IMG/VR virus record: IMGVR_UViG_3300028591_000080
Span: 95,745-159,744 of that record
Strand: one strand, 5' to 3'
Length of the DNA: 64,000 bases
DNA from: a virus
Lineage: Duplodnaviria > Heunggongvirae > Uroviricota > Caudoviricetes
Shown here piece after piece: positions 8,470-42,407 of the stretch. The position numbers were made by a program, and so were the translations under genes. The notes under the pieces were generated by a model. The model made no database searches, was not told the origin of the DNA, and saw only the letters and a list, made by a program, of their open reading frames with translations. Position 1 is the first letter of the stretch. Each line of letters starts with the position of its first letter.

Positions 8470-9576
8470 TTAATTTAATCTAAATAACATTAAATTTAAA
8501 TATTCAGTATTTCAGTCTTTATTATCAAATATTTTGGAATAATCATATAAATCGATTTGTGAAAATGCATTGCTTAAACTTAATTGTTTTTCGTCTTGTA
8601 AATATTTAATATAATTTATTAAAGGTTTATATTCAAAAAACTTATTTATTCCGTTATAATTAATTAATTTTCTAATACGATCGTCTTTTACTAAGTCCTG
8701 ATCATAAATCGTACTTGTTAAATTTAGCTGTTCACAATTAAATAAAGTCATCGATCTATGATTAAGAAAATCTTTATTAATATACTTTAAGATAAAAGAT
8801 GAAATACTACCTTCTAGTTCTTCTGCACCTTTCCATCCGTGTGCATCAGCACCACGTGCTTTTCTATTTGGTATATGTCTAGTTAAAGAACCAAATATAA
8901 TTTTTACACTTCTAAATACCGAATCAAGATAATTTTTTCTATCTTTTATATTATTTAAAAGTCTAACCATGGCACAGAACTTGTCTTGATAACCACCAAA
9001 AAGCTCTAAGATATTTTCATTATTATAATTTGGAATAAAATTTTTAATATTTTTAAACTGATATAAATTTTCTGGCATTAATCCTTCAAATCCATAACAA
9101 ATTCCACCTCTATAAAAAATTCCACTATCTGTCGCGAAACAATTTGGTCGAAATGGTCCATTTAAAATTGGTTTACAACAAACAACAGCTAAATCTGAAT
9201 TTGTATTAAATTGGTATAACACTTCTAAAATATCTCCACCACACAATTCACTATCAAAGCTCATATCATCATCTAATAATCCATATACTAAACTATCAGG
9301 ATATAGTATTGCACATTCATTTCTCATTTGAATTAATGGAGTGTATGGTTTTATGATTTTATAATCTTTATAAAAATATTTATATTCAAAATGTAAATTA
9401 TCTAATTCTGTTAGAACTTTATTAATTTGAGTATCTGTGTACGGAGGTTGAAAACAAATTGCAAAATTAACATAATCCTTTGTAATTTTGATATTTTTTA
9501 ATGAAGGTAAAAGTCATTTAAACATTTCATCTGGTTCACATGTTGGTAATAAGAATGTTATTTTATTTTGAAACAT
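8470..9576 (-). CDS. GT-A fold glycosyltransferase-like protein (368 aa); code 4
   Basis: Start MFQNKITFLLPTCEP with AAGGAG SD; TGA at 9514 and 8512; LLDDDM (DXD) motif; paralogous to the N-terminal half of 16111-17448. Confidence 0.7.
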
Positions 9577-10530
9577 TTATTTATTATCTCCTTTAATTAA
9601 ATTAATATATCAACATAAATTACAATATATTTTATTATTAGATTTATTATTAATAAAACACTTATCAAAATCCTTATTTAAAGGTAATTTAAAATCTTTA
9701 ATTGAAATAACTTTATATGCTTGATGAACTCCTTTACAGCCACAACGATATACTGATCCATCAGGCTCTATAAATATACCATTATATCCAGCTGAACAAT
9801 CGAAATCAGTTGGGTCAAAGCCACCATCATCTAAAGTATTTGCAAATTGAACTCCATTAGAAATATTAAATGTTTCTTTACTAGTAATAACTGTTGCATA
9901 ATTACCGGTTTGATTTTTTCAATATTGTTTCATAAAATTACTTAAAGTTTCATTTAAAGGTTCTATTTTATTTTTATCTCCTCTAACAACACTTAAATTT
10001 AATTTTACTTTGTTATTTTTTAAATATTCATAATTAGCTAAATCAAAATTATTATCTACCATTAGTCTACATATAGGTAAGGAATAACCATAATCTAAAC
10101 ATCATTTAGTTAATTCAATTATTTTATCATCATAATCTTTATTTTCATCATGCTTACTACACATTAAACAAAAATTAATATTTCTACTTCTCGTATAAAT
10201 ATATAATTCTTTATAATAAGTTACAGAATTAGAAAAATTAGTCGTCATACTAATTTTATTGATTCTATTTATCTTATCTAGAATATTAATTCAATTATAA
10301 AATGCAACCTCTCCACCTAATAATTTAAAATAAATTTTTTTATCTTGAGGTAATCTATTAATAAATTTATTTATATACTCAGCAATCTGTAATACTTTAT
10401 TTTCATTTACATAACTTTCTTTAGGACTAACACAATAAGAGCAATGATAATTACACCATCTTGTAGGATGTCAATTAATTAAAAAATAATCACTATTTAA
10501 TTTGATAGCTTGTATATCACTACTCTTCAT
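9577..10530 (-). CDS. Radical SAM protein (317 aa); code 4, absent from the ORF track
   Basis: IN-W(TGA 10471)-HPTRWCNYHCSYC CxxxCxxC motif, GGEVAF, C-terminal Cys cluster (DCSAG, IFIEPDGSVYRCGC). Confidence 0.85.
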
Positions 10531-11317
10531 TATATTTTTTCTCCAAATCTTCTATCAATTTTGGTAAAAATTTTTTATCAGCAAAGTCAACAATGCTTTT
10601 TAATTTATTACTAAAATAATATACTCCTCGATATTGCTTTTTAAAAAAATCTGATTCTTTTGTACAAAAAATAATTCTATCATTATTTTTAACTATTAAT
10701 TTATATTTATGACTACACCATAATTTATTAAATCTTTGATAATAATTAAAATCGTCATTATTAATAATAACATAAATAAAACATTGTTTTTTAAATGCAC
10801 TTAGATGAATAAAAGTTCTATTTCAATTAAATAAATCTATATTAGAAGGACGATTAAATTTTAAAAAATGAAAAATTTCTTTATCCTTCATATTTAAAAA
10901 TGATTTATTTAAAAATTTGTCTCAAATCATTTTAAATATACGTGTATTATTAGCATTATAGATTTTATCTCAACAGTCATCGAAATAGATTTTATCTAAA
11001 AAAATATTATTTAATGCATCTTCAGAAATTAATACATCACCATCAAGTCATAAATAATTATTATGTTTTGATAAAATATAAATTCTAAAAGCATCCGCTA
11101 TAAATTCAATCCTCTTATTTGTGTATAAATCCCATATAGGACTAAATAATTTTCAAAATTCAATATATTCAGGATTTAATTTATTATAAATAATAATATT
11201 TTTTATATTTAAATTATTATTTTTATAATTATATCAAGAATTTAAACAAATTTTTTGTAACTCATTATCAAAATAATTATTTAAATTTAGTGAAAATATT
11301 GTAACCATATTATTCAT
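10520..11317 (-). CDS. GT32/OCH1-like DXD glycosyltransferase (265 aa); code 4, absent from the track
   Basis: ADAFRIYILSKHNNYL-W(TGA 11048)-LDGDV matches the sDxxRlxxLxxxGGxYxDxDv motif. Confidence 0.75.
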
Positions 11318-12287
11318 CTCTTTTTCATGAATCTGATTTATAATGTAATTTACATTGATCTAAAAATTCTTTTAATTCTTCAAATTTTCTTGAAAGTATT
11401 CCACAATTAAAACAAGGATGAGATTGATCGACTATTTCTCCATTAAGAATTTCTTTAGTTCTCATGTATTCAAGACTATTAAATAACCCTTCTAAGCCAA
11501 TATCAAAAACATTAATGTTAGTAGGAATTTTATTTCCACAGCAGATCAATCATAATCCGTTTCAATTAATAACTATTTTTTCATCAAAATAAGTTGTTTT
11601 ACATTTATGAAATTTACTATGATTATGTTCTTTTGGTAATTGCTTTCTATTTAATCACTGTAATCCAGTAAGCTCTTTTATTTTGTCCGGATTTGACGGA
11701 ACATAATCTAATTCTCAAGTTAATTTAAACTCTATTTTAATTCCTAATTTATTAGCTAAGGTTAAAGCTTTTTGAATTTCTTTTGGATCATCATCTGTTT
11801 GCATTACAATATATTGTCATACAATTTCAGGATAAGTAGAATTCTTTTCTTTCTTGTAAGTAATTAATTTTTTAAGATTATCGATAACAATATTAAAATC
11901 TCCTCCACGTCTGTATCTTGAATAAACTTCTTGGCTTGCTCCATCTATAGCAACATACACAATTTTAACTTGATAATCAACTAAAGCTTTAATTAATTCA
12001 TCTGAGACTTTTGTAAAATTAGTACCATTTTTAATAGTTATATCTATATTATTTTCATATGCATATTTAATTATTTGAGGTGCTTCTGGATTTAATAATG
12101 GTTCACCACTATTAGATATTTCAATACTAGAAATTAAATCCTTATTTTTATCTATAAATTTTTTAAAGTTTTTAAAAGTCAGAAAGCCAGCACCAATTTT
12201 TCCATAATTTATCTTACGCATTCCACAGGCTGGACAGTTTAAATTACATCAAGTAGATATGTCTAATTGAATTCTATATTTTTTCAT
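11310..12287 (-). CDS. Radical SAM/SPASM-twitch protein (325 aa); code 4
   Basis: DIST-W(TGA 12249)-CNLNCPAC, GEPLLNP, C-terminal KC..INWNGLWLICC..HPCFNC; joins track fragments 11817-12221 and 11325-11549. Confidence 0.85.
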
Positions 12288-12723
12288 AACTATCCTCCAG
12301 TCTATAAATTAATTCTTCAAGATTATAATCACTATTTTTTATTAAGTAAGTATTAATATTTAATGAATTACATAAATCTTTTAAATTAGATAAATATATT
12401 CCATCATCTAAAAAACTTGAATCAATTCTGTTACAGGTTTTTCTAGTTTCAATTTGTTTCTTAATATTTAGAATAATAGACTCATCAGGTAAAATAACTA
12501 TTAAAGGTAATTTATATGTTGCTAATTCTCTTAATATATAAGCATTAGTACCTATAAGTAAAATCTTATCTAAAGTTAATCAATTATTTATAGTTCAATT
12601 AATAAATTCATCTTTATCTGTAAATAAATCAAAGGTTGGATTATAAAAATTATTTGGTTTGGATTTTGCTAAAGTACTTTTACCTATACCTGGAAAAATA
12701 ACATAAATATATTTACCTTTCAT
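12274..12723 (-). CDS. Small P-loop NTPase/kinase (149 aa); code 4, absent from the track
   Basis: MKGKYIYVIFPGIGKSTL Walker A; overlaps the downstream radical SAM start. Confidence 0.7.
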
Positions 12724-12735
12724 TTTTATCTCACC

Positions 12736-13746
12736 TTAATTTCTATATAAATTTGTACCAGCACATAAATCACAACGTTTATCTTTAGTAGGATTATTTG
12801 AATTTAGTTTACATTTAACAGGTTCTGTTTTGATTTTATAATTATTTAAATCGGATAAATTTCCTATAATATCTTTTTCTAAATAAGCACATCTAGCTTT
12901 AACTATATTTCCATTAGGTAAAATAGCAATAGCATTTACTCCAGCTGTACAATAATAACCATCTGGAATAAAACCGGCTTTATCTATATGATTTGTAATA
13001 TTAGATGCACATGTAAAACCTTGTATTGTTCCATCATTTAATTCTAATTGATATGTATCTCTTTTTAGTTTTTGAATAGGATTAGAATATTCTTGATAAA
13101 TCTTATTATATTCATTTATATAATCTAAAATATTATTTGGTAAAGGTTTATTAGATTGGTTACTTAATCTTAATCGAGTTAATCTAATTCTTCAAATATT
13201 ATTATTTAAATAATCTTTTAAAATATTTTTGTCAAAATCGTCATCTACTACTAGTGTTAATTGTGGATCTTTATAACTTATTTTATCGTGATGATGACTT
13301 CTACATCAATTAGTTAAAGTAATGAATTTTTCTTTAAATTCTTTATTTTCTTTATGTAAGCTACAAATTAATACTAATTGAATTCTTCTATTAAAACAAT
13401 AATCTTCTAATTCATAAAAATAATTTAATTCTCTAGAAAAATTAGTTATTAGAACAACTTTATTTAGACGTTGTATTTTGTCTAAAATTTTAATTAGATT
13501 ATAATAAGTAACTTCTCCTCCGATTAGCTTTAAAGCAATTGATTTATTAGAATAAAAAGTATTAATTAAATCATTAATTTTAAAAGCTTTATCTAAAATT
13601 AATTTTTCATCTATTCAAGAGCATTTTAAATGGTTTGTAATACAGTAAGGACAAGAATAATTACACCAGCCTGTCATATATCAATTTATTTGAAAAAAAT
13701 CTTTTGTTAATTTAATAGCTTTTATATCATCATTATGTATTAACAT
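12736..13746 (-). CDS. Radical SAM protein (336 aa); code 4, absent from the track
   Basis: IN-W(TGA 13681)-YMTGWCNYSCPYC, IGGEVT, C-terminal YYCTAG..ARC..C..CDLC; paralogous to 9577-10530. Confidence 0.85.
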
Positions 13747-13748
13747 AA

Positions 13749-14561
13749 TTAATCCTTCTTATATTTCTTTTTCATCATTTCATTATATTTATATGTACTT
13801 TTTAAATATTCATTATCTGTTTGATTTGCATAAGCACGTTCATCTTTATTAAAACAATGACTATCTCAATATGGATGACTTGGATAAACTGCTGAATGTG
13901 GTCTAGGTATTCTTTCATCTAATAAAGTTGCCTCTCTCACATTCTCAAAACAAATACCTAATTTTTGACAACCTTCTCAAATACTTGTTCAGAAACTAAC
14001 TGTATTAGCTAAATAAGCATTTTCAGTTAATTTTGCGGCTTCAGCTTCCTTTCTAGTTACATATCTAAATATATGCCTTGCATCAAATACTTCTTGATAT
14101 ATTTCCTGAACTTTTTGACAGTCCTCGACATCTCCACCGAGAATTGTAAAATCATAACTAAAATTATTACAATGCTGTGTTGCACCACTATGTTCAGGAC
14201 TATGAATTATATGTTTACTTGTTTGTTCGACTAAATAATCACAATAACCAACATTAACTGTCGATTTAATTAGATAAATTTTAGCATTTACTTCGTTTAT
14301 AGCATCATAAACTAAATGACAATCTAAAACTCCACTTTCTTTATCATATGGTGTTGGAACTGCAACTATTGCCAAATCATATTCTACATCTTTTATTCTT
14401 TCTAAAGCATCTTCAAATTTTAATAGTTCTTGTTTTCCAGTAGAAAATAACATACTTCCATTTAAATCTAAAATATCCGGAGTATATCTTTCAAATAATA
14501 CATCATATTCAAGTTTACCTACAACTCCAAACCCAACAACGACAATACGTTTATCTAACAT
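13749..14561 (-). CDS. UDP-glucose/GDP-mannose dehydrogenase-like protein, short form (270 aa); code 4
   Basis: VVGFGVVG Rossmann motif, IAVPTP, IKSTV, SPE, KLTENAYLA; TGA read-through adds HCFNKD (catalytic Cys motif). Confidence 0.8.
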
Positions 14562-14632
14562 ATTTAACTCCTAAATTTATTACTATAATATATTATAATA
14601 TATTATACAATATTAACAAAAGAAGATCAAGA

Positions 14633-15616
14633 TTACTTTTCTTGATCTTCTTTATCTAACATTAATAGTTCTTTTATTTTACTTACACTTATATGTCCAC
14701 AAAGTGTACAACAATTATGAGGACATATTTTTGGTTCTTTTAATAATTTAAAATTCTCTATTGGCTCTTTAAATTTACAATTAGACTCACCAAGTCTTCC
14801 AACATGATAATCTTGTTCTAAATATACAAAATCATAATCTCGAGTACAATAATAACCTTTAAAAACTCCATAAGAATTATAATCAGTAGTTTCTCCACTA
14901 ATGAATTCATTTCTAGTTTTAAATAATAATTCTTCATCTAAGTCAGTTATTATTTTATATCTATTAGATTTTTGTTTACTAGCACCTACTTTTAGTTTTT
15001 GTTTTATCTCAGGTGGTTGTGATAAATCTCTTTCGACAAAATAACTCAATTGATTTTCTTCACAATAAGAAATAAATCTTTCGACTAATTCTTGATTATC
15101 TATTCTTGAAACTAATTCAGCTCTAATTCCTTTTTGATTAGTTGGAGATTTAATTTGTTGAAATTTTTCCATGAATTTTTCAAGAGAGACGAATTCAGAA
15201 TGAAAGCTACAAGTTATTCCCAATTCAGCGCCAAAAGAATGAACTAATTCGCATAAGTTGGTATAAAATTGAGCTGGTTTACTCATATTTGTTGTTATAT
15301 TAACTCTGAATAACTTTCCATCTGATAACATGAATAATAATCTTAACATTTTATCTAGATCAAATAAAGAAACCTCACCACCAATTAAATCTAATTTAAC
15401 TTTTCCAGGTAATTCTCTTATAATTTTAGCTACAGATGGAATTGCTCTATAAATTTTATTTGAATCTTCTTCTATTTTATTTAAGGATCTATCTGGAGCG
15501 AATTGTGCATATCTTAAACAGTAAGAACAAGCATAATTACAAACATCTGTCATTCTTCATTTGATAACAGATTGACACTTACCTTTTATATCTAATACAG
15601 CTTTTATATTATCCAT
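14633..15616 (-). CDS. Radical SAM protein (327 aa); code 4
   Basis: Start MDNIKAV with SD; IK-W(TGA 15557)-RMTDVCNYACSYC, IGGEVS, ITTNMS; third paralog of the W..T..CNY.C.YC type. Confidence 0.85.
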
Positions 15617-15708
15617 AAGAGTAATCTCCTTATATAATGTATAATACAATATATTATTTAATAATAAAAAACATTGTATATTTAATATGACTGAGAGGTT
15701 AAATTTTT

Positions 15709-16032
15709 ATGATAATTAAAATTTCAAAAATCGATTATATAAAAGAAGAAGAAAAAATAAAAATTCCAGATACTTTTACTGATTCCACTGGTCGTTCTAA
15801 TGCTTATAAAATAGCGGCGGATTGGTTGTATAGAAGAAATAACAAGGTCGAAGAAAAACGCAAACCTGGACCAACCAAGATATTACCTGATGAACTATTA
15901 ATGGCTATAGACGTACGTTCTGTAGATGATTTAACAAATGTAAGTACTGAATTACTTGTAAAAAAGTATATAAGAGAAAAAACTGGTTGTGAAGCTAGAT
16001 CATTTAGATTGTCATGTGAATATTTTGAATAA
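15709..16032 (+). CDS. Hypothetical protein
   Basis: 107 aa ORF with GAGG SD; ends at the bidirectional terminator 16035-16063. Confidence 0.6.
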   Translation: MIIKISKIDYIKEEEKIKIPDTFTDSTGRSNAYKIAADWLYRRNNKVEEKRKPGPTKILPDELLMAIDVRSVDDLTNVSTELLVKKYIREKTGCEARSFRLSCEYFE

Positions 16033-16034
16033 AT

Positions 16035-16063
16035 AAAAAAAGACTAAGAAATTAGTCTTTTTT
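16035..16063. terminator. Bidirectional intrinsic terminator
   Basis: AAAAAAAGACTAA-gaaa-TTAGTCTTTTTTT between convergent genes. Confidence 0.8.
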
Positions 16064-16110
16064 TATTTTATATAGAATCTAGGTATTTCTTTTAATATTA
16101 AATTCAGGTC

Positions 16111-17448
16111 TTATAGTTTAACATTTCTATATTTATCTACCACCCAATTATTAACTACTTTATCTATCTCAATTTTATGAACGACTAATTCATAATTACC
16201 AAAATCTGTTTGAGAATAGATTCCATATCTAAATTCATGTTTATTAAACCATCTTTCGTATTTCCATTTACCATCATTTATTTCAATAGAATCAGATGTA
16301 ATATTAATACTAATCGTATAATCTTGATTTAATTCAAAGTTATCCAATTTAGTATAATGATTTACATTACAATTATCTTTATAAGTAATATAAATACTAT
16401 TATCTATAATAGAAATTCTAATTACTGGAACATGTCCATTATCTAAAGAATGTAATTGTAAAACTGTAAATTCTTTATAATCTTCTGCTTTAGTTACTTT
16501 AAATGAATACTTAATTGAATTACTATTTACTGATCTTTCATCTCTTGGTGTCGAGTGATTAGTGAAATAAACTTTCGTATATTTATTTAAATTTAAAGTA
16601 AATTTCATTGGATGGGCTAATTGTTCTACTAATAAGACACGTCTTTGATGAGATAACATTAGTTTTAATTTTTCATCAAAAATTGGATTACGATGAGCTA
16701 GATCATATAAGCTACAAAAATATTTTCTAATAAAACTACATACAGAACCATTAATTGGTTCAGCACCTTTCCAGCCGTGTTGAATATATCCAAAAACTTT
16801 TCTATTTTCTCAATGTCTTGTTGGAACATTTATATAACTTTTAGTTAAACCACCTTGAGCAATTCTAATCATTGCACATAATTCATCTTGATGACCACCA
16901 AATAATTCTGTTAAGTCTTCTCCATCATAAGGTTTTAAAGTATAACATTCATTAGGTAGTCTATGTGGTACTAAACCTTCATAACCATAATATTTTCCAC
17001 CTCTATAAATTAACCCAGCATTAGTATAAAAACAATTTTCTAAAGCTACAGGCCTCTTAGAAAAAGAACAAACACATAATTTTTGATCTTCATCCATAGA
17101 TTTTATAACATCATCATAATATTTATCTATTCCTTCTTCAAATTCCATGTCATCATCTAATAATGCATAATAATCTGAGTTTGGATAGAGCATAGCACAA
17201 TCATTCCTCATTTTCATTAACGGTACTTTAGGTTTTTCAATTTTATAATCTTTAAAAATATATTTAAAATCAAAAGGTTCAAATCAAGTTATAGTATCTT
17301 GAATTTGCTGTTCAGTATATGGAGGTTGAAAACAAATTCCAAAAGATATTTTATCTTTAATTGATAATAAATATTTTAATGATTTAACTAAATATTTTTC
17401 AATTGTATCTGGTTCGCATGTTGGTAGGACAAATGTTAACTTTGACAT
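16111..17448 (-). CDS. Glycosyltransferase fused to a polysaccharide-lyase-like (PL7-like) domain (445 aa); code 4
   Basis: Read codon by codon: start MSKLTFVLPTCEP, LLDDDM, TGA 16810, open in frame into 16111-16659 (TVLQLH and FRYGIYSQ resemble PL7 QIH and YFKAGxYxQ). Confidence 0.7.
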
Positions 17449-26321: not shown

Positions 26322-27110
26322 TTAGTCCTTTTTCTCTACTAGTTTTTCTTTTTTGTTTTTAGTTTTTTCTTTTTTAGGTTCTTCTTCTTGCTTAGGTTCT
26401 TCAACCTTTTGTTCTTCTTCAACTTTAGGTTCTTGATTGATACCTAATGCCCATTTAGCTAATGCTTCGTTTGGATTCTTAGATTTCTTTACTTCATCCG
26501 GAATCTCATATCCTAAAGCAGTCATCTTATTAATAACATCTTTTTTATCTGAAATCGTTTCAACAAATTCTATCTCATGGTCAACATATAGAGTTTTTTC
26601 TGCTGCTACATCAATAGCATTTGTAATAATTCTATATGGATTCTTTTCATTATACATATGTGATGTTTCAATAACACCTAATGCCACATCTTGACCTGAA
26701 CCTATAGCATCATAATCTTCAATCTCAGTTACAGTTAAATCTTGACTGATCTTCCAACATTTATCTTTATATGCAATAAAGAATTCATTTGGTAAACTAA
26801 ATGGTTGTGTTGGATCATCTACAATAATACCATGTGCTTTTAATGTTTCATAAAGAGTTCTAGGAAGTTGTAAATGGATGAATGCATCATCTAAATTTTC
26901 TTTTCCAAATCCTGCACCATCTAATAGTCCTTTTATATATTGAATTATTTGAGAAGCTCTTGCATAGCCTACAGAACCAATACAACAACCTTCATATTCT
27001 GAATACCATACTTTTGTTGCAGAATGGTCTTTATTATTCCATTGTGATACTTGCTTATCAGCTCCTAGAATAAATCTGTTTTTATCTTTAATAGCAATTA
27101 CTAGTGACAA
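26322..27110 (-). CDS. Ntn-hydrolase peptidase, proteasome-beta/HslV-like
   Basis: MSLVIAI..ILGAD.QVS N-terminus (Ser nucleophile position) and AIGSG motif. Confidence 0.7.
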   Translation of the reverse strand: MSLVIAIKDKNRFILGADKQVSQWNNKDHSATKVWYSEYEGCCIGSVGYARASQIIQYIKGLLDGAGFGKENLDDAFIHLQLPRTLYETLKAHGIIVDDPTQPFSLPNEFFIAYKDKCWKISQDLTVTEIEDYDAIGSGQDVALGVIETSHMYNEKNPYRIITNAIDVAAEKTLYVDHEIEFVETISDKKDVINKMTALGYEIPDEVKKSKNPNEALAKWALGINQEPKVEEEQKVEEPKQEEEPKKEKTKNKKEKLVEKKD

Positions 27111-27180: not shown

Positions 27181-27528
27181 CTAAAAATTAACTACAATAA
27201 CTCTTAAATTCTTATCTTTTGCGATATTAATCATATGTCCTGTGCCTTTAGATTTTCCATTCCAAAATGCAATTAAAGCGTCAGCATAATCTGCCATTTC
27301 AACATTACGTCTATACCCTGCAGACTTACCATATAGATCCCAATTAGCTGGAAATTTTTTAACTTGAATATTATATTCTTTTGCGAATTGTTCACCTAAA
27401 GTGTCTGCACCTCTAGCTGTTCCAGAAACTATTTCTTCTACTTCACATCTTTGAAAATTTTCTTGAATACTTTTCTTTAACAAATCATAATCATTAAATT
27501 CTCTAGAGCCTGCTACAATTAACTTCAT
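27181..27528 (-). CDS. SLOG/YspA-like protein (DUF2493-type)
   Basis: IVAGSR, VSGTARGAD, AGYRRN..M, FWNGKSKGT motifs. Confidence 0.85.
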   Translation of the reverse strand: MKLIVAGSREFNDYDLLKKSIQENFQRCEVEEIVSGTARGADTLGEQFAKEYNIQVKKFPANWDLYGKSAGYRRNVEMADYADALIAFWNGKSKGTGHMINIAKDKNLRVIVVNF

Positions 27529-28001
27529 TATTGACTAGCTTCTTTCATAATATCTTTATAATATTGTCTAACACTCATTAAAACTTGTCCTAATAAATTT
27601 TGACCACTTCCATCCCTACCAATTCCCCAAACATAGTCAAATGGTGAATCTTCTACTATCTTAGTATCACCTGTACTCATTAATATTTTTCTTAGTTCAG
27701 GGTTTTGTCTATACTTTTCATGATTAATTGAAAGCATATTTTTATAGCGTACTTCAGCCCAAAGTTCTTCATCAAAGCCTTTAACTTGTCTTCCTAATTT
27801 CTTAATCTTTTTAGGATCAGTTTCTAACATTATTTGATTAGCTGTTTCATCATCATGAAAGCATCTAGCTTTTGACCACATGAAAGCTTGTTCAGAACAA
27901 TTAAATTTTCTACCTTCCCAAGTAAATTCACATGGATAGAAATTACTAAAACAGCCATATTTTTCTCTTTCTTGTCAAAATCCAATTACTTTTTCTTCCA
28001 T
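27528..28001 (-). CDS. NADAR family protein (157 aa); code 4
   Basis: Start MEEKVIGF-W(TGA 27975)..CFSNFYP..SEQAFMWSKA; EDSPFD..WGIG, GQNLLG motifs. Confidence 0.9.
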
Positions 28002-28004
28002 AAA

Positions 28005-28238
28005 TTACTCCTTAATTACATAAATACTTTTACTAGGACTTGTGATATATACAGTATTTTCAGATCCATACTTAGAATAGTATGATATAATTAGTGGTTT
28101 ACCAATTTTAGTTTCATCTTCTTTTAATACAGTTCCAATAAAAAGCTGAACACCTTGTGATTTATTATGTGTAAAAACCACTTTATCACCAACATGGATT
28201 TCTTTTCCTTCAATATCTTTTTTCATATTAATTACCAT
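28005..28238 (-). CDS. Hypothetical protein
   Basis: KDIEGKEIHVGDKV motif common in small phage proteins. Confidence 0.6.
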   Translation of the reverse strand: MVINMKKDIEGKEIHVGDKVVFTHNKSQGVQLFIGTVLKEDETKIGKPLIISYYSKYGSENTVYITSPSKSIYVIKE

Positions 28239-29136
28239 TTATCTTTCTAATATCATCAAACATTGGCTTGATGTCCTCTAATAATGGTTTTCTCTCTTCT
28301 TCTGGAGTCGTTGAAGAAGTTGAATAAGTATTCTTAACTAAATCAATAAACATAGTCATTTGTCCATCTTCGCCCATATATGATTGATTCCATTCTTCAT
28401 CTGTTAATAATCTCTTAGGTTCTAATTGTTTTAAAGCTAGATTATCAAAAGATACTACTGCAAAATGCTTTGTAAGTTCTTCTAAAGAGTCATATAATTC
28501 CTTTTTATTATTATCAATTTCCTCTTTATACATCCAATAATCATAAGCATCTTTACCACGTCTAAATTCTTTATAACCTAAAATTAATAATTTTAAATTC
28601 TTATTATATAATTTCTTTAATGTTTCAACTGAGTGAACGCCATTAATTACATGAATAACTGCATTTTGAATAGTTTGAACATTTTCTATAAAACCTTCTT
28701 GATCTGGATTTGTTAAAGATACACCTAGACCATAAATAAGTTTATTTTGAATCAATTTCATAATTCTATCATAATCTCTCATAAAATGCATTTGATTAAC
28801 TGTCATATTAGGAATTAATCTTAAAGATTTGCATTTTTCTAAGAATGCTTCTAAGTCTGGATGTTCAAGTGGATTTCCACCACCAATAGCTAATTCAGTA
28901 TAAGGAAGTAAAGTTTCAATAAACTTTGCATTCATTATATCTCCATGTTCACCATTTGATACTGAATTTTCATGACAGAATTTACAACCTCTATCACATT
29001 TATTAGTAATCTTAATATCCATAGAATCTGGATACTCTGGAATTAGTTTATCCTCTTTATTATATTTAATTAAAGTTCCATCATCAAATAGCACCTTCCA
29101 ATAGTTACCATTTTTTACTTTTCCAATTGGTTTCAT
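28228..29136 (-). CDS. Radical SAM protein
   Basis: DIKITNKCDRGCKFCHE CxxxCxxC motif, AIGGGNP; no SPASM Cys cluster. Confidence 0.9.
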   Translation of the reverse strand: MKPIGKVKNGNYWKVLFDDGTLIKYNKEDKLIPEYPDSMDIKITNKCDRGCKFCHENSVSNGEHGDIMNAKFIETLLPYTELAIGGGNPLEHPDLEAFLEKCKSLRLIPNMTVNQMHFMRDYDRIMKLIQNKLIYGLGVSLTNPDQEGFIENVQTIQNAVIHVINGVHSVETLKKLYNKNLKLLILGYKEFRRGKDAYDYWMYKEEIDNNKKELYDSLEELTKHFAVVSFDNLALKQLEPKRLLTDEEWNQSYMGEDGQMTMFIDLVKNTYSTSSTTPEEERKPLLEDIKPMFDDIRKINGN

Positions 29137-29169
29137 CTATTTCACCTCTTTATAATATAAAATACAATA

Positions 29170-29195
29170 AAAAAGAGGCTATTTAGCCTCAATTT
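29170..29195 (-). terminator. Intrinsic terminator between the FETNSSS-1 gene and the radical SAM gene
   Basis: GAGGCTA-tt-TAGCCTC with an A-run on the + side. Confidence 0.7.
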
Positions 29196-29644
29196 TAATA
29201 TTCTTCTCCATAATTACCAAAAGCAATTATTTTTTCTCCGGATTTGGTTTCGTATTCTTGCGAAAAGCTTTCTAAATATTCGTTATCTAAAAATTGATCT
29301 AAAGTACAAACTTCATTTCGATCAAATGGTCTATGTTTAGCGTCCTCATCTTCATCTTCGTCTTCTTCATAATAGTCATTAGGATCAAGCTGAATCATCT
29401 CGACTAAATCTTCAAGACTTTCAGGATCTTTTCCTAATGCATTACAATACTTATCCCATTTTTCTTTATTCCAATCACTATTATTAATTAAAGCATCAAA
29501 TAAGTTTTCCTTTAAGACTACTTTCTCATCAACTAAGAATGCTTCTTCGTCTTCTAATAACTTATATTCACTAGCTTCACACATAATTAATGAATGAGTA
29601 CTTGAACTATTAGTTTCAAAAGTATTTTTTCTAACTTGTAACAT
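29195..29644 (-). CDS. FETNSSS-motif protein 1
   Basis: MLQVRKNTFETNSSSTHSL. Confidence 0.85.
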   Translation of the reverse strand: MLQVRKNTFETNSSSTHSLIMCEASEYKLLEDEEAFLVDEKVVLKENLFDALINNSDWNKEKWDKYCNALGKDPESLEDLVEMIQLDPNDYYEEDEDEDEDAKHRPFDRNEVCTLDQFLDNEYLESFSQEYETKSGEKIIAFGNYGEEY

Positions 29645-30150
29645 TATTTTTTCTCCTTAATGACTTTCTTATATTTGTCTAAAACATCTTCAACAAATTT
29701 TTTTGTTTCTTTATGTAAAATCATAGTCTTTTTATGATTATCATACCAGCTTAATACTTCGTCTAACTTATCAACCTTAAACGAAAAACTCATCCAATCA
29801 CAAAGCATTTCTACTGCTGTTTCTCTCGGCATTTCTAAAGCTTTATCACCATTATCGTCTTGAACTAAAACCCAATGTTGCCAATGATGTGGATTTGCAT
29901 GTTGGTGATGTAGCCAAGCTAAATCAAAGTCATCTTTAACCTTTTGTGTCTTTTCACTATAAAAATACTTATCATAAGCATCATATTCTGCATCAGTCCA
30001 TTTAGACATATCATGCTGAGCTATTTGTTTTTCTGCTGCAGATAAATTACAATCTTTGCTTGTAATAATCTTATTATCTTTTAAGAACTTAAAAGCTTTC
30101 TTAACATTTTCGACATGTTCAATAATATAATCATTATATTGTTTACTCAT
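29644..30150 (-). CDS. HD-domain-like protein (DUF5662-type)
   Basis: HVENV, HDMSK, AWLHH..NPHHWQHW, EMLCDW motifs. Confidence 0.8.
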   Translation of the reverse strand: MSKQYNDYIIEHVENVKKAFKFLKDNKIITSKDCNLSAAEKQIAQHDMSKWTDAEYDAYDKYFYSEKTQKVKDDFDLAWLHHQHANPHHWQHWVLVQDDNGDKALEMPRETAVEMLCDWMSFSFKVDKLDEVLSWYDNHKKTMILHKETKKFVEDVLDKYKKVIKEKK

Positions 30151-30794
30151 TATTCTTCAAAATCCTTTTCTGTGATATTATATTTTGAGCAAGTATGGTC
30201 ACTACCAACATATACTTGCACTCCAGTATTTAGTCCTGGTTTTAATGTTGGATTAAATGCATCATAATAATCTGAATTATCATTATCAATAACTATCAAA
30301 CATCCTTTATTAAATATAACCTTAATTAAATCTTCATCATCTAATAAATCTTGACTATCATGATCAATACTTCCGAATGGATCTCCATACTCATCTACAT
30401 TCAACTCAAATCTAATTTCTTTAATTTCTGGACATAAATCTTGAATTTTTTCTAATAAGGCTCTAGCTTCATCATTTTCATAAATAGCACCATTAGCAAT
30501 CATTATTTTAGCTTCATCATAAGTAGTATCATGTTCGTCTCCCCAATTTAAATGACGACATAACGTAGTCATGACATAATCTAACTTATCATTAGAACTT
30601 GCTAATATATCATCAGTACCAAATCCATAAAAAGATTCAGGACCTGACCAACCATAATCTCTAAAATGAATAGTTAAAATACCATTATCAGTTTCTAATT
30701 TATATTCAATTCTATTTGGGTTAGCTTGAGAATAAACTAAAGCATGTGATGAACTTGAATTAGTTTCAAATATACTATTCCTAACTTTTAGCAT
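30150..30794 (-). CDS. FETNSSS-motif protein 2
   Basis: Probable start MLKVRNSIFETNSSSSHAL. Confidence 0.85.
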   Translation of the reverse strand: MLKVRNSIFETNSSSSHALVYSQANPNRIEYKLETDNGILTIHFRDYGWSGPESFYGFGTDDILASSNDKLDYVMTTLCRHLNWGDEHDTTYDEAKIMIANGAIYENDEARALLEKIQDLCPEIKEIRFELNVDEYGDPFGSIDHDSQDLLDDEDLIKVIFNKGCLIVIDNDNSDYYDAFNPTLKPGLNTGVQVYVGSDHTCSKYNITEKDFEE

Positions 30795-30795
30795 A

Positions 30796-31092
30796 TTATT
30801 CTCCTTCTTTTTCATTTAATTTATTCTCTAACTCTTCAATTTCTTTTTGTTGTATGTCAGCAATCTTTTCATTATCATTTTGAATATCTGTATACGCATT
30901 TGATGTGCCAAAGATAAGTCCACACAATGCACCTGTACTTACATAATTTAATGTAGTATCATTCACAACGCCACACTTATTTAGAATTAAGAATGTTATC
31001 AGTGTAATTAAAATAATTATACAAAGAATTACAAACATAATTTTGGTAACTTTAATATCATCTTTAATTTCTTTGATTTCATTTTTATACAT
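30796..31092 (-). CDS. Two-TM membrane protein
   Basis: Two hydrophobic stretches and a coiled-coil tail. Confidence 0.6.
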   Translation of the reverse strand: MYKNEIKEIKDDIKVTKIMFVILCIIILITLITFLILNKCGVVNDTTLNYVSTGALCGLIFGTSNAYTDIQNDNEKIADIQQKEIEELENKLNEKEGE

Positions 31093-32107
31093 TTATATCA
31101 CCATCCTGTGCTGTAACTACATTTTCAATTTTTTGAATTTTACCATTCTTTGTTTCAAATTGTTTTCCACATTCTAAACAACGATAATGTATTATTGTCC
31201 AATTAGGATTTGGAGTATCTTGTAAAATTCCATCTTTATAAATTCTTGGAACATAAGCTAATGATTGCATTGTTACACCTTCTTCATAATGTCTAGCACC
31301 ACAATATGGACAAACTAAATCTGGATGTAATCCTTCAGCTTTATGAAAATTATAACGTGGTAAATCAAATGGAGTTCTTGAAATTCCATCACAAGCATCT
31401 TTTAAGATCTTATTTAAATCTTCATTTGTTTGAATTGGAGTAGATGTTTGAATAGACTCATCTTTAGTTTCTTCAGAAGATTGATCCCAGCTTAAGACTG
31501 CTAGTACAGTTTCTGCATATTCTTTATTAAGCGAAACTGCAAATCCTTTTGGATTATAAAATTCTAATAATCTCATAAAAACAGCATCTTTAAAATCTTT
31601 TCCAAATTCTTCCCAAAGACGTCTCTCATTAATATATCGACTAATTTTTATATTAATTTGTGAAGTATAAGAATATTTACCATCTAAAGCTGCAGTTCTA
31701 ATATTTCTAGCTACATCTTCTTTTATATCATTTACACACTCATCAACTGCCTGATTATATTTAGAATATTTTTCATTTTCAGCTTGTTTAGCAATTTCAA
31801 TTAGTTCATCTGCTGTTATTTCAACATCATTAAGAGAATCGTCTATATCTGGTTTCTCGAAATCCCACTTTTCTCCAAAATCATCTAATGTAAATTCATC
31901 AGAAGTATATAATTTACCATCAATAGTTTTATAATTTACTCTTAGCTTGTCATCTACAAATTCACAATCATATCCCATTCTAGGATGTATTGTGAGTACG
32001 ATAATGTGATTTAAATTGTTTCTGATCTTTTTTCTTAATTCTATTTTATTCATTTTTATCTCCAAATTCATTAAATAACTCATTAAAAGTTTTACATAAA
32101 AGTTCAA
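31085..32107 (-). CDS. Hypothetical protein with C-terminal zinc ribbon
   Basis: CPYCG..CLECG motif; start uncertain. Confidence 0.6.
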   Translation of the reverse strand: MNFYVKLLMSYLMNLEIKMNKIELRKKIRNNLNHIIVLTIHPRMGYDCEFVDDKLRVNYKTIDGKLYTSDEFTLDDFGEKWDFEKPDIDDSLNDVEITADELIEIAKQAENEKYSKYNQAVDECVNDIKEDVARNIRTAALDGKYSYTSQINIKISRYINERRLWEEFGKDFKDAVFMRLLEFYNPKGFAVSLNKEYAETVLAVLSWDQSSEETKDESIQTSTPIQTNEDLNKILKDACDGISRTPFDLPRYNFHKAEGLHPDLVCPYCGARHYEEGVTMQSLAYVPRIYKDGILQDTPNPNWTIIHYRCLECGKQFETKNGKIQKIENVVTAQDGDINV

Positions 32108-32480
32108 AACACATTGGTGCTTTTTCTGGCATTTTTGCCTTTCCAGTACCTAAGAGAATTTGTCCATCTTTCATTGGAACATAGACATTTTTTCCAGCCT
32201 TTAACTTATTTCTTAAGCTAAAAAGTATGTTATGTAGATAAAATCTATACTGTCCAAGATTTCTATCATTTAAAAAACTTTCTTGTGATAGTTTCCTATC
32301 TATCTTAGTTATTATGCCAAAAGCATTTGGTAAACCTCTAATCACTGCCTGTGTAACAGAAGGAACATATCCTGTTTCAGCATCAGCTAAGTTATCTCCA
32401 AAAACATAAATATTCTCTGGATCTGCTTCAACCTCTGCTCTTGTTCATATTCCTTCATAAGGTAAAATTTTTCCAGCCAT
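32046..32480 (-). CDS. Conserved phage protein, IYVFGDN type (144 aa); code 4
   Basis: Start MAGK with SD; GI-W(TGA 32445)-TR; IYVFGDN..QAVIRGLPNAFGI.TK and GTG.AK motifs. Confidence 0.75.
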
Positions 32481-32488
32481 AATTTCTC

Positions 32489-32860
32489 CTAACCAAAGTA
32501 GTAAGTTAAGGAAGCCTCTTGCTTATCAGAATTATAATCATATTCCTCTAACTCATCAATAGAGTAGAATGTTTCTTCAAAATATAACAACTCATTAATT
32601 CCATGATATACATCTTTTCTAGCTTCATCGTCAATATCTAAGTCGGCAAATTTAGTTCTATTTACAGAATTATAAATTCTTCTAATATGAAGTTTAATAT
32701 CTTTTAAAGTACAAAACTCAGGTAAACCATTACTCTCATGCAAAGTATTATAAAATAGTTTACCTCTTGCAAAATCTAACCAAGTTTCTTCATTACAAAC
32801 AACTAATGAATGAGAACTTGAACTATTAGTCTCAAACGTTCCTTTACGAATGTTTATCAT
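32489..32860 (-). CDS. FETNSSS-motif protein 3
   Basis: Probable start MINIRKGTFETNSSSSHSL. Confidence 0.85.
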   Translation of the reverse strand: MINIRKGTFETNSSSSHSLVVCNEETWLDFARGKLFYNTLHESNGLPEFCTLKDIKLHIRRIYNSVNRTKFADLDIDDEARKDVYHGINELLYFEETFYSIDELEEYDYNSDKQEASLTYYFG

Positions 32861-32861
32861 A

Positions 32862-33065
32862 CTAATCACCAACTTTTTCTACATATTGCACTGCAGCAAT
32901 AACATTACCACTAATAGAATAGCTACTATCATTACCTACTCCGTCAGGACGTGGAATATATACAATGTTATGCAATCTAGGATAATTATCGTCTAAAGAT
33001 AGATTTTCTAAAAATTTATTCAATTCTGCTTCACTCTCACAATATTTAACTCGCATTTTAAGCAT
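32862..33065 (-). CDS. Hypothetical protein
   Basis: 67 aa; TAATG coupling. Confidence 0.55.
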   Translation of the reverse strand: MLKMRVKYCESEAELNKFLENLSLDDNYPRLHNIVYIPRPDGVGNDSSYSISGNVIAAVQYVEKVGD

Positions 33066-34039
33066 TAATTATCACTCTCCTCATCATGATTATCAATTCT
33101 AATTGTATCAAATACTGATAAATCTAAATCTTTTAAATCATTCATAGTAATCTTATCTTCTCTTGAATATGTGTAAGCACAGAATACAGATTTAATATTT
33201 GGACATAATGTTCTAGCATAATCAATTAGTTCTTTGATTAATTTAGTGTCATTATTAAATTCTGCCACTGTATCTCTATCTTTATCAGATCTAGCTTCAT
33301 CGTCAGAAAATTCAAAACTAAATGTTATGGATCTAGTTAATGGATGCATAGATTCTTTAATATGAGTCTCAAGCTCTTCTTTGGAACTATTATAAAGAGA
33401 ATATTCACTAACATGAATGTCTGAATCATTCCAATAATCAGCTCCAGAAGAAATATCTTCTAAATCCTCTGCATTAATAATTCCAGCGTCAAATAATGAT
33501 TTAAATAGTTGACTTTCATCACCATCTACAATAATTGTATATTTAGGATTTAATATTAAATCTTCCATTGAGATATTGTGTGCTTCAACATAATGCATTG
33601 GATCTTCGCCAGAATCATTTGAATAAACAGCACCATAAGTAATATGCTTTTTAAATCCTTTATAATGATAGAATTCACGCTCATCCTTACAAAGAATAAT
33701 CTTTTTTCTATTGGTAATTCCAGTTTGTTTCATAATAAAATCTTGGATTCTCTTTATATCAGCTTTTTTAGGTTTTCTATAAGTACCTAAAGTATAAGCA
33801 GCATAATATCTTAATTTATCTAATGGAGTTCGTAATACTTGGAATGGACTTCTCTCATATGTCATATCACTAGGTTCTATCCAATGCCATAGATCAAAAT
33901 CTTTATTTCTTTCTTTTTCCCAAGTGCTATATCCTAAAGCTAATTCATCTTCTGTATAAGGTTTAATAATCTTAGATACAACTAAACTATGCATTGATGA
34001 TGAATTTGTTTCAAAACAATTTCTTCTAATATTAATCAT
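33065..34039 (-). CDS. FETNSSS-motif protein 4
   Basis: Probable start MINIRRNCFETNSSSMHSL. Confidence 0.85.
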   Translation of the reverse strand: MINIRRNCFETNSSSMHSLVVSKIIKPYTEDELALGYSTWEKERNKDFDLWHWIEPSDMTYERSPFQVLRTPLDKLRYYAAYTLGTYRKPKKADIKRIQDFIMKQTGITNRKKIILCKDEREFYHYKGFKKHITYGAVYSNDSGEDPMHYVEAHNISMEDLILNPKYTIIVDGDESQLFKSLFDAGIINAEDLEDISSGADYWNDSDIHVSEYSLYNSSKEELETHIKESMHPLTRSITFSFEFSDDEARSDKDRDTVAEFNNDTKLIKELIDYARTLCPNIKSVFCAYTYSREDKITMNDLKDLDLSVFDTIRIDNHDEESDN

Positions 34040-34364: not shown

Positions 34365-35225
34365 TTAATCATTTAATAAATCAGCTAATGCTGCGGTTTT
34401 TGATCTTTCTGATTGTACTAAATGGACATATCCAAATAATGGATTTCCACTTAATCTCTCAATCATAGTTTCGATACCTTTTGATTTTTCAAAAATTGCT
34501 TTATCTCTTTGTCTAACATCTGCATCAAACCAAACTTCTGATCCTTCAGCTGCTCTTGCAATAATTAATTGAATATGTTCTTTAGTTAGGTTTTCAGCTT
34601 CAGAACACATAATTAAAGTTCTTTCTAAATTACGTCCTCTAAGACTCTGTAATGGTTCAATAACAAGCTTTCCATTACTAAGCATACATTCAACTCCTGC
34701 TTCACCACAGTGGTCAATAAAAGGTCCTAAAAATGGCATAAGTTTATCATTAACTTCACCAGGTAAAGCACCTAAATCTTTAGTATCTTTAACATCAACA
34801 TTATTTCTAATCCATACGATTCTATCAAAAACATTTTGTTCTAATGCTTCTAAAGCAGCAGTAACTAATAACATTGTTTTACCAGTACCTCAAGTACCAG
34901 TTAATAATTTAACAGTTTTATCTCTGTCTTTTAGCATATCAATTGCGCAGATTTGTTCTGAATTTCTCGGTTTTATACATATATTTTTATCCGCGCTCTT
35001 TTTACTTCTAAAATTGATTGATCCCCTTCCAAACTTTCTTAATTTACCGTTTTCATAACACCATTGAGATGCAAGTTTTTCTTTGCCATCTTCTTCATTG
35101 AAAACTAACAAATACTCATTTTCTTTCAACTCATAAGGTGAATAGGCCTTAACTGAAAACTCTGCCCATTCGTCTAATGTTGGAATCCATCTCTTCCAAC
35201 CTGTGTAAATAAGTTCGTTTGTCAT
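34365..35225 (-). CDS. phoH: PhoH family ATPase (286 aa); code 4
   Basis: EQICAIDML..LLTGT-W(TGA 34890)-GTGKT Walker A; G.LPG, RGR, EAENLT, DVRQRD motifs. Confidence 0.92.
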
Positions 35226-41909: not shown

Positions 41910-42407
41910 CTATTTAGTATATAAAACTGGCTTAAATTTTTTGTTTTTTATAGTAGCTTTAAAATCAATCACTCTTTGATTAGAAGAGCCTTTATAACGT
42001 AATTTTGGATCAAATAGATCAATATCAAACTTACCGTCTATAAGTACATCAATAGAACTATCTTTAATTTTATTAATTACGTCTTCTAATAAATATCCTG
42101 TCCAAACCCAAACAGTTTTATTTGGATAAACTTCTTTAAATTTTTCAATTAATCTTAATGTTCCGTTTATATTTTTATCATGCAATGGTTCTCCACCTAA
42201 AATACTTAATCCAACAATATAATCTGGTTTGGCTAATTCAATTATTTTTGAGATTGTTTCATCAGTAAATTCTTTTCCAGAATTAAAATCCCAAATAGTA
42301 TAATTATGACAACCTTTACAATATAAATCACAACCGCTAAAGTAGATTGCTACTCTACATCCTGGACCATCTGAGATATCCATTTTTCTAATTTGAGAAT
42401 AATTCAT
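41910..42407 (-). CDS. nrdG: Anaerobic RNR activase
   Basis: DGPGCR..SGC...CKGC.N, GLSILGGEP, GSSNQRVID. Confidence 0.95.
   Translation of the reverse strand: MNYSQIRKMDISDGPGCRVAIYFSGCDLYCKGCHNYTIWDFNSGKEFTDETISKIIELAKPDYIVGLSILGGEPLHDKNINGTLRLIEKFKEVYPNKTVWVWTGYLLEDVINKIKDSSIDVLIDGKFDIDLFDPKLRYKGSSNQRVIDFKATIKNKKFKPVLYTK

Follow-up and report, generated by a model that had tools for sequence, protein, structure and literature searches.

The locus analysed here raises the question of why four phage proteins that have little else in common should begin with the same short peptide beside a gene for a radical S-adenosylmethionine (SAM) enzyme (rSAM). The window, that is, the whole 64,000-nucleotide stretch under analysis, covers positions 95,745 to 159,744 of one 230,252-base virus record of the Caudoviricetes with 28% GC (IMGVR_UViG_3300028591_000080). 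From 28.2 to 34.1 kb of the window every gene lies on the minus strand, and four open reading frames (ORFs) in this part start with M-x3-R-x3-FETNSSS-x-H. Their first 19 residues are referred to as the tag and the proteins as clients p1 (29195-29644, 149 amino acids), p2 (30150-30794, 214 amino acids), p3 (32489-32860, 123 amino acids), and p4 (33065-34039, 324 amino acids). The rSAM gene (28228-29136, minus strand, 302 amino acids) lies directly downstream of p1. Considering the results given below, we favour, with moderate confidence, the reading that the tag is the docking site and the probable modification site of a phage protein-maturation system made up of one rSAM and its clients.

On alignment, the four clients are identical at M1, R5, F9 to S15, H17, and L19 and share little else, in agreement with the original prediction, which had described the register-locked R5, F9 to S15, and H17 at these four places. 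The p1 tag comprises codons 1-19 (29588-29644, minus strand, MLQVRKNTFETNSSSTHSL), and the equivalent tags of p2, p3, and p4 occupy 30738-30794, 32804-32860, and 33983-34039 on the same strand. A six-frame scan of the 230,252-base genome returned four copies of FETNSSS, each at the start of a client ORF, which excludes chance. The serine codons switch class between paralogs (AGT TCA AGT, TCA AGT TCA, and TCA TCA TCA), indicating selection on the peptide and not on the DNA. The four client ORFs and the rSAM gene contain no TGA and are the same under genetic code 4.

The tag and the enzyme travel together well beyond this genome. Of 79 viral loci seeded with the motif, 71 encode a homolog of the window rSAM (phmmer, 1e-116 to 5e-27), in every case on the strand of the motif gene. 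In the two exceptions whose flanks are complete, the enzyme is encoded at another place on the contig, and the remaining ones are short fragments or lie at contig ends. A motif gene and the rSAM gene are separated by 0-33 nucleotides in about 44 of these loci, and in none of the 70 that have both genes by more than 1.3 kb; either gene may come first, and some clients lie 10-27 kb away from the rSAM. In the reciprocal sample, 78 further viral loci seeded with the rSAM alone, 77 carry between one and six motif ORFs, each of them oriented like the rSAM gene. Bacterial and archaeal assemblies were sampled as contigs of GTDB species-representative genomes, and 61 of 71 loci from them have the rSAM, including 33 of the 33 with full flanks. 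Firmicutes and Bacteroidota from gut and rumen make up most of this sample, which also covers Methanobrevibacter and Absconditabacterales and includes isolates such as Thomasclavelia cocleata DSM 1551 and Eubacterium plexicaudatum ASF492. The linkage is near-obligate, and proteins with the motif were not found to occur independently of this rSAM clade.

The number of clients per enzyme varies. The largest number seen is ten tag-bearing genes in a 20-kb stretch around a single rSAM, on contigs of Fibrobacter and Prevotella metagenome-assembled genomes (L180 and L181). Cultured phages with the rSAM include the Prevotella Lak megaphages and Microcystis phage Ma-LMM01, in which (L158 5070-6876) gp128 is the rSAM, annotated as ‘Fe-S oxidoreductase’, gp130 is a 165-amino-acid client, and gp129, between the two, is an unrelated gene of 112 amino acids. 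A scan of RB43 for TNSSSS returned only one antisense chance match, inside ORF277. When the rSAM sequences were collapsed to below 70% identity, 85 of 87 lineages had a motif gene within 4 kb, and the next commonest neighbour family, a P-loop kinase-like protein, occurred in 15 of the 87. No third gene family is conserved across these lineages, indicating a two-component module, and no conserved leader protease, exporter, or structural or head gene was found nearby in them. Judged from sequence, the module is thus a two-component phage system of one single-cluster rSAM and one to ten clients.

The rSAM, whose sole existing label is ‘Fe-S oxidoreductase’, matches PF04055 (31.6 bits against a cut-off of 29.5) and phrog_16999 (2e-46), bearing out its recognition as a radical SAM enzyme from the letters alone. 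Its CxxxCxxC motif (C47, C51, and C54) reads CDRGCKFC, and the protein has four cysteines in total. These three cysteines are invariant in 26 diverse homologs (alignment A3), in which no auxiliary-cluster (SPASM or twitch) cysteines and no conserved cysteine column outside CxxxCxxC were found. Further conserved stretches of the homologs are GGGNPL, an SFDNLALxQ block, and, in the N-terminal part, ..NGN..DGTKIR... Four of the 26 have an insert of 10-11 residues between the first two cysteines (Cx13-14CxxC; L006 8591-9505, L008 8297-9235, L041 10417-11313, and L053 11296-12234).

In the AlphaFold2 (AF2) model of the rSAM, with a predicted local distance difference test (pLDDT) of 94.9, a three-stranded beta-sheet (residues 3-9, 12-17, and 22-25) precedes the barrel; this N-terminus has no helices and does not form the winged-helix recognition element (RRE) of enzymes acting on peptides that are ribosomally synthesized and then modified after translation (RiPPs). 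Foldseek gave 69 PDB matches at E <= 1e-3, and those listed are nearly all rSAM enzymes. The best are SuiB with its precursor peptide (E 9e-9, template modelling score (TM) 0.56), CteB, SkfB, BlsE, PqqE, DesII, and EpeE, and the anaerobic sulfatase-maturating enzyme (anSME) anSMEcpe with bound peptide (4k39) matches at E 3e-6 and TM 0.53. Fold similarity to SPASM and twitch maturases extends over the core and the C-terminal region (E 9e-9 to 1e-5, TM 0.45-0.58), whereas sequence profiles match only their rSAM core. The enzyme is structural kin of peptide and protein maturases. A hidden Markov model of its clade has one match in the genome, 28228-29136 itself (E 1e-128), and nothing else even at E <= 10. 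The 230-kb genome holds seven rSAM-like genes, just one of which belongs to this clade; two of the others are at 41934-42344 (PF04055, 1e-10) and C1:204534-204917 (PF04055, 1.6e-4).

A complex of the rSAM (alignment A3), a 4Fe-4S cluster, SAM, and p1 (alignment A4) was predicted with interaction prediction scores from aligned errors (ipSAE) of 0.88, 0.88, and 0.86, against 0.01 and 0.00 when the partner was replaced and 0.38, the best control, when the rSAM was replaced. In the calibration of the tool, 58 of 80 solved complexes attained the mark, as did 2 of 110 mismatched pairs; these counts are a rough guide here, where our own alignments and small molecules were supplied. Contact agreement between the runs is 88% or higher, and the partner has a pLDDT of 71 or more. 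On the client side, the confident interface consists of residues 1-23, 25-27, 40-42, and 119. On the rSAM side it includes residues 1-3 and 12-31, with residues 19-26 in strand pairing with client residues 1-9, and barrel contacts that include the invariant D40, E81, T112, G136, G138, S140, H162, F230, D231, and S275. Invariant columns of the rSAM are over-represented among the interface positions (14 of 25 versus 55 of 277, Fisher p = 2e-4). The binding mode of the tag in the rSAM barrel is predicted only. Together with the linkage, the complex prediction supports the central claim of the original prediction, that the N-terminal tag marks several clients for the adjacent rSAM.

None of the four clients matches a model in Pfam, PHROG, NCBIfam, or PADLOC, and homologs of p2 are unnamed metagenomic or viral proteins. 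For comparison of the parts behind the tag, residues 1-24 were removed and the bodies were clustered by BLAST at E <= 1e-5, giving two main classes of 253 and 143 members and about 30 small groups. Type-0 clients, which include p2 and p4, have a median length of about 180 amino acids and carry IDHxS and DNDN motifs; their further invariant polar motifs are W49, KLxY, IDH, and DND. Beyond its tag, p2 has the conserved GW, KLxYxxT, GSIDHxS, and IVIDNDN motifs, and its distant homologs retain the N-terminal block, the KLxYxxT helix, GxIDH(Q/E)S, and the (I/V)xDNDN strand end. The exact C-terminus DNDNH is present in 62 of 175 proteins of a profile-selected set. A divergent type-0 client, p4 has a C-terminal extension of about 95 amino acids, reads near VEAH in place of IDH and DGDE in place of DNDN, and aligns with the p2-type profile over 191 columns (hhalign, 97% probability), which bears out the later DKLxY and IxIDxD resemblance of p2 and p4 pointed out in the original prediction. 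Type-1 clients are acidic proteins of 95-149 amino acids with the C-terminus ..SGDxIVAFGYYGYD, and their genes lay directly upstream of the rSAM gene in 17 of 38 cases in a first sample. This is also the position of p1, a short acidic type-1 client with a conserved C-terminal hairpin motif, ..SGxxIIAFGxYG... The type-1-like p3 ends in ..TYYFG and is without the final YGYD residues; it aligns with type-1 clients, yet is a singleton in the BLAST clustering.

Conservation across the family is concentrated at the start of the proteins. An exhaustive search with the type-0 profile matched 3,871 representatives (clustered at 50% identity) at E <= 1e-3, of which 1,438 reach E <= 1e-10, and client lengths range from 95 to 420 amino acids. 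The consensus of the tag is M-x3-R-x3-(F/Y/W)-E-T-N-S-S-S-x-H-(S/T)-(L/I/V). R5, E10, N12, S13 to S15, and H17 are invariant among 167 unique members; in 171 representatives chosen by profile rather than by pattern, E10, T11, N12, S13, S14, and S15 are invariant and H17 is kept in 170. Rare variants occur in paralogs adjoining an rSAM gene, at S15 (five), T11 (three), and S13 (one), and never at E10, N12, or S14. In 423 unique members collected from the loci, the distance from the nearest start codon to the invariant arginine that follows it is 4 residues in 256 and 5 residues in 149; by the sequences, the tag is the extreme N-terminus in a nearly fixed register. It is the sole universally conserved client element and contains no glycine, and no RVxG-type loop was found in the clients. 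Short acidic type-1 clients have only the tag in common with type-0 clients: profile-profile comparison of the two classes aligns columns 1-24 alone (98.4% probability). Beyond the tag, type-1 clients keep just one glutamate and two glycines nearly invariant. Invariance confined to a start-locked 19-mer on diverged bodies fits a shared, highly constrained partner.

Among 67 diverse clients searched against Pfam, the only match was a C-terminal Tad2-like domain (PF11195, Thoeris anti-defence 2), the sole recognisable client domain, which was not found in the four window clients. The fusion is above the cut-off in a 262-amino-acid client (L006 10001-10786, 3.9e-7) and is also present in P0023, P0043, and an Atlas cluster of 62 members; the type-0 clients that bear it reside on phage contigs of 65-70 kb. 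The AF2 model of p2 (pLDDT 83, predicted template modelling score 0.84) has a strand at residues 15-21, and its tag loop (residues 6-13, NSIFETNS) is below pLDDT 50. This model had no PDB match by Foldseek (best E 2.1) and a best Z of 3.4 by VIA-align against 48,161 chains, and neither search returned HAD or SGNH hydrolase folds for a type-0 model whose tag loop is of low confidence. A sequence-profile search of the PDB returned nothing, and matches of p2 in AFDB clusters and the ESM Atlas are uncharacterised and mostly viral, those with recorded taxa being viral. The lack of a match for the modelled type-0 fold does not prove a new fold.

We propose the following scenario for the maturation system. 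The first nine or so residues of the client would pair as a beta-strand with the N-terminal sheet of the rSAM, akin to a RiPP leader on its recognition element, and through this pairing E10 to H17 would enter the open barrel, where they would lie above SAM and the 4Fe-4S cluster. A tag residue would then lose a hydrogen to the 5'-deoxyadenosyl radical, the likeliest target being S14 or S13, which are favoured because E10, N12, and S14 never vary and S15, T11, and S13 occasionally do. The modified tag would afterwards fold back on the client body. In type-0 clients it would probably complete a polar, metal-site-like pocket with IDHxS and DNDN(H), and the modification would be a maturation step for an enzyme or ligand binder, as in sulfatases. 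The absence of auxiliary clusters lowers the likelihood of most crosslinks, of thioether formation, and of a two-electron oxidation of the anSME type with internal electron transfer. Hydrogen abstraction may still end in epimerisation or elimination, in an adduct, or in a protein radical. A terminator-like hairpin followed by a T-run, detected by a consensus scan in the 58-nucleotide gap between p1 and the rSAM gene (29175-29190, minus strand), could attenuate transcription and so yield more client than enzyme; this single instance would fit a high client-to-enzyme ratio. In a bolder extension, which we consider rather unlikely, one invariant tag serine (S14 or S13) would be turned by the rSAM into a crosslink or a catalytic residue of non-canonical type, and type-0 clients would be a hitherto unknown phage enzyme class with a new fold and an active site of modified tag, IDHxS, and DNDN(H); some members, fused to a Tad2-like nucleotide-binding domain, would counter host defence by acting on nucleotides of immune signalling or on other molecules of the host.

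Several points weigh against modification of the tag by the rSAM. The rSAM lacks the SPASM or twitch clusters needed by most rSAMs that oxidise or crosslink proteins and peptides, which narrows the chemistry. A stretch of seven invariant polar residues in a row is more typically found in a loop for catalysis or ligand binding than in something that is only a substrate, and the catalytic-looking motifs of type-0 clients suggest that the tag may serve mainly in the client's own active site. The control in which the client was kept and the rSAM was swapped still scored an ipSAE of 0.38, and solved rSAM-peptide complexes may contribute to the predicted score. A single marginal BLAST link (E 1e-4) joins the type-0 and type-1 bodies. 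Single linkage at E 1e-3 merges the two main classes through that one link, and they are separate at 1e-5. The bodies are therefore described as not detectably homologous, the wording ‘unrelated bodies’ having been dropped given this link, and both classes may go back to a single ancestral fold. Modification of the tag is a proposal, and the complex is a prediction.

The main rival sees the clients as stable, interchangeable specificity subunits, whose unmodified tag plugs the barrel and supplies E10, N12, S13 to S15, and H17 while their bodies bring third-party substrates such as nucleotides, nucleic acids, or proteins. The same linkage and the same complex prediction hold for such subunits, and an invariant polar run would suit a role in catalysis or ligand binding. 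Usually the rSAM gene directly adjoins or overlaps one client gene or more, suggesting co-translation, and some bodies bear the ligand-binding Tad2-like domain. However, some clients are encoded 10-27 kb from the rSAM, one enzyme can stand beside up to ten clients, and the nearest solved folds take peptides as substrates. The predicted pose would moreover fill the substrate cavity with the tag, leaving, to judge from the contact list, little room for anything else. We thus regard the subunit explanation as unlikely, though it deserves to be taken seriously.

It is also conceivable that the clients form one divergent family of phage enzymes, in which the motif is the conserved loop of the active site following the first strand. 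The rSAM would then be a pathway partner that shares their small-molecule or nucleic-acid substrate and leaves the tag alone. The invariant type-0 polar motifs W49, KLxY, IDH, and DND, the exact DNDNH ending in 62 of 175 proteins, the weak BLAST link between the body classes, and the place of strand 15-21 in the modelled core would all be expected of such a family. Set against this, only the first 24 columns align between the class profiles, type-1 clients keep just the one glutamate and two glycines beyond the tag, and absolute invariance is limited to the extreme N-terminus in a fixed register. In addition, the tag loop of the monomer model is of low confidence, and the complex prediction with the tag in the barrel passes its controls. 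The original prediction had named as evidence against itself a motif that is simply the first core strand of one shared fold; what was found instead is a low-confidence loop, classes that align only over columns 1-24, and client residues 1-23 placed in the rSAM by the complex prediction. We consider the active-site-loop explanation improbable. Finally, a targeting signal, for export or for capsid packaging with the rSAM linkage incidental or regulatory, is very improbable. A start-locked handle on diverse bodies does resemble the capsid-targeting sequence of T4 internal proteins, in which some 10-20 conserved N-terminal residues precede otherwise variable phage proteins, but no rSAM is involved in T4, the phage module has no conserved protease or structural or head gene linked to it, the predicted docking site is the rSAM active site, and the reciprocal linkage to one rSAM clade is near-obligate over 87 lineages.

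Sulfatases, glycyl-radical enzymes, and RiPPs are well-known cases of protein and peptide maturation by rSAM enzymes, and the favoured maturation reading can be set beside each of these. The anSME enzymes (AtsB and anSMEcpe) and their sulfatases are similar in that one rSAM serves several folded clients with a short serine-containing motif, which later forms part of the client active site. The phage rSAM differs in having no SPASM auxiliary-cluster cysteines, only C47, C51, and C54 being conserved, and the phage motif is FETNSSSxH at the extreme N-terminus instead of (C/S)xPxR. Unlike sulfatases, the clients do not have the alkaline-phosphatase fold and have no PDB match, and the system is phage-borne. 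The anSME analogy drawn in the original prediction thus stands for fold kinship and for clients that share a motif, and breaks down for the auxiliary clusters and the substrate motif.

The RiPP maturases (SuiB with SuiA, CteB, SkfB, and PqqE with PqqD) are the best structural matches to the phage rSAM, pair a substrate N-terminal segment with the enzyme N-terminal domain as predicted here, and have adjacent, often multiple substrate genes. In contrast, the phage clients are proteins of 95-420 amino acids rather than short peptides, the rSAM has a three-stranded sheet in place of a winged-helix RRE and has no auxiliary clusters, and no conserved leader protease or exporter lies near the module. 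The glycyl-radical activases PflA and NrdG, with PflB, TdcE, and GrcA, are likewise small single-cluster rSAMs acting on a conserved loop of several folded proteins, and the window rSAM has weak sequence matches to NrdG models. It is, however, larger and has a docking sheet, and the tag is without glycine, stands at the N-terminus rather than near the C-terminus, and is not accompanied by RVxG.

The other genes around the clients do not belong to the module. The original prediction had pointed out an interleaved HD-type gene; this gene encodes Pfam DUF5662 (4e-35), occurs in none of the 79 related loci, and is incidental. The remaining window neighbours, namely a 98-amino-acid membrane protein, a 340-amino-acid zinc-ribbon protein, DUF7831, and ORFs of 67, 77, and 95 amino acids, were likewise rejected as module parts, being absent from all 79. 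Three nearby genes are whole only when TGA is read as tryptophan, as in code 4: NADAR (27528-28001, 1e-49), DUF7831 (32046-32480, 6e-23), and PhoH-like (34365-35225, 1.5e-33). Directly downstream of the rSAM gene (27181-28001), a YspA/SLOG-family gene (PF10686, 1.5e-14) stands with the NADAR gene, a pairing that suggests conflict genes related to NAD or ADP-ribose; a SLOG homolog is near the module in only 3 of 87 lineages, and the link is not conserved. An ORF of 262 amino acids at 26322-27110 has a weak proteasome or Ntn-hydrolase-like N-terminus (PF00227, 1.6e-4, just under the cut-off) and a tail rich in lysine and glutamate. Farther away, 8470-17448 is a very AT-rich island (GC 21-27%) whose ORFs have many TGA tryptophan codons. 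It contains rSAM-like genes with cysteine-rich C-termini (9577-10530, 11310-12287, 12736-13746, and 14633-15649), none of them in the clade studied here, as well as glycosyltransferase-like ORFs and a gene resembling nucleotide-sugar dehydrogenase, and looks like a separate sugar or glycan radical-chemistry cluster.

None of the papers searched contains the motif string or describes the tag-rSAM pair, and none reports an rSAM that serves a folded phage protein family through an invariant tag at the extreme N-terminus. The system is thus apparently an undescribed form of rSAM-dependent protein maturation. The module is widespread, in gut and rumen phages of Firmicutes, Bacteroidota, and methanogens, in Lak megaphages, and in cyanophage Ma-LMM01. 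If the tag is modified, a new post-translational modification would be defined. If the maturation reading is true, it would provide the first handle on thousands of ‘hypothetical’ phage proteins, some of them with hints of anti-defence.

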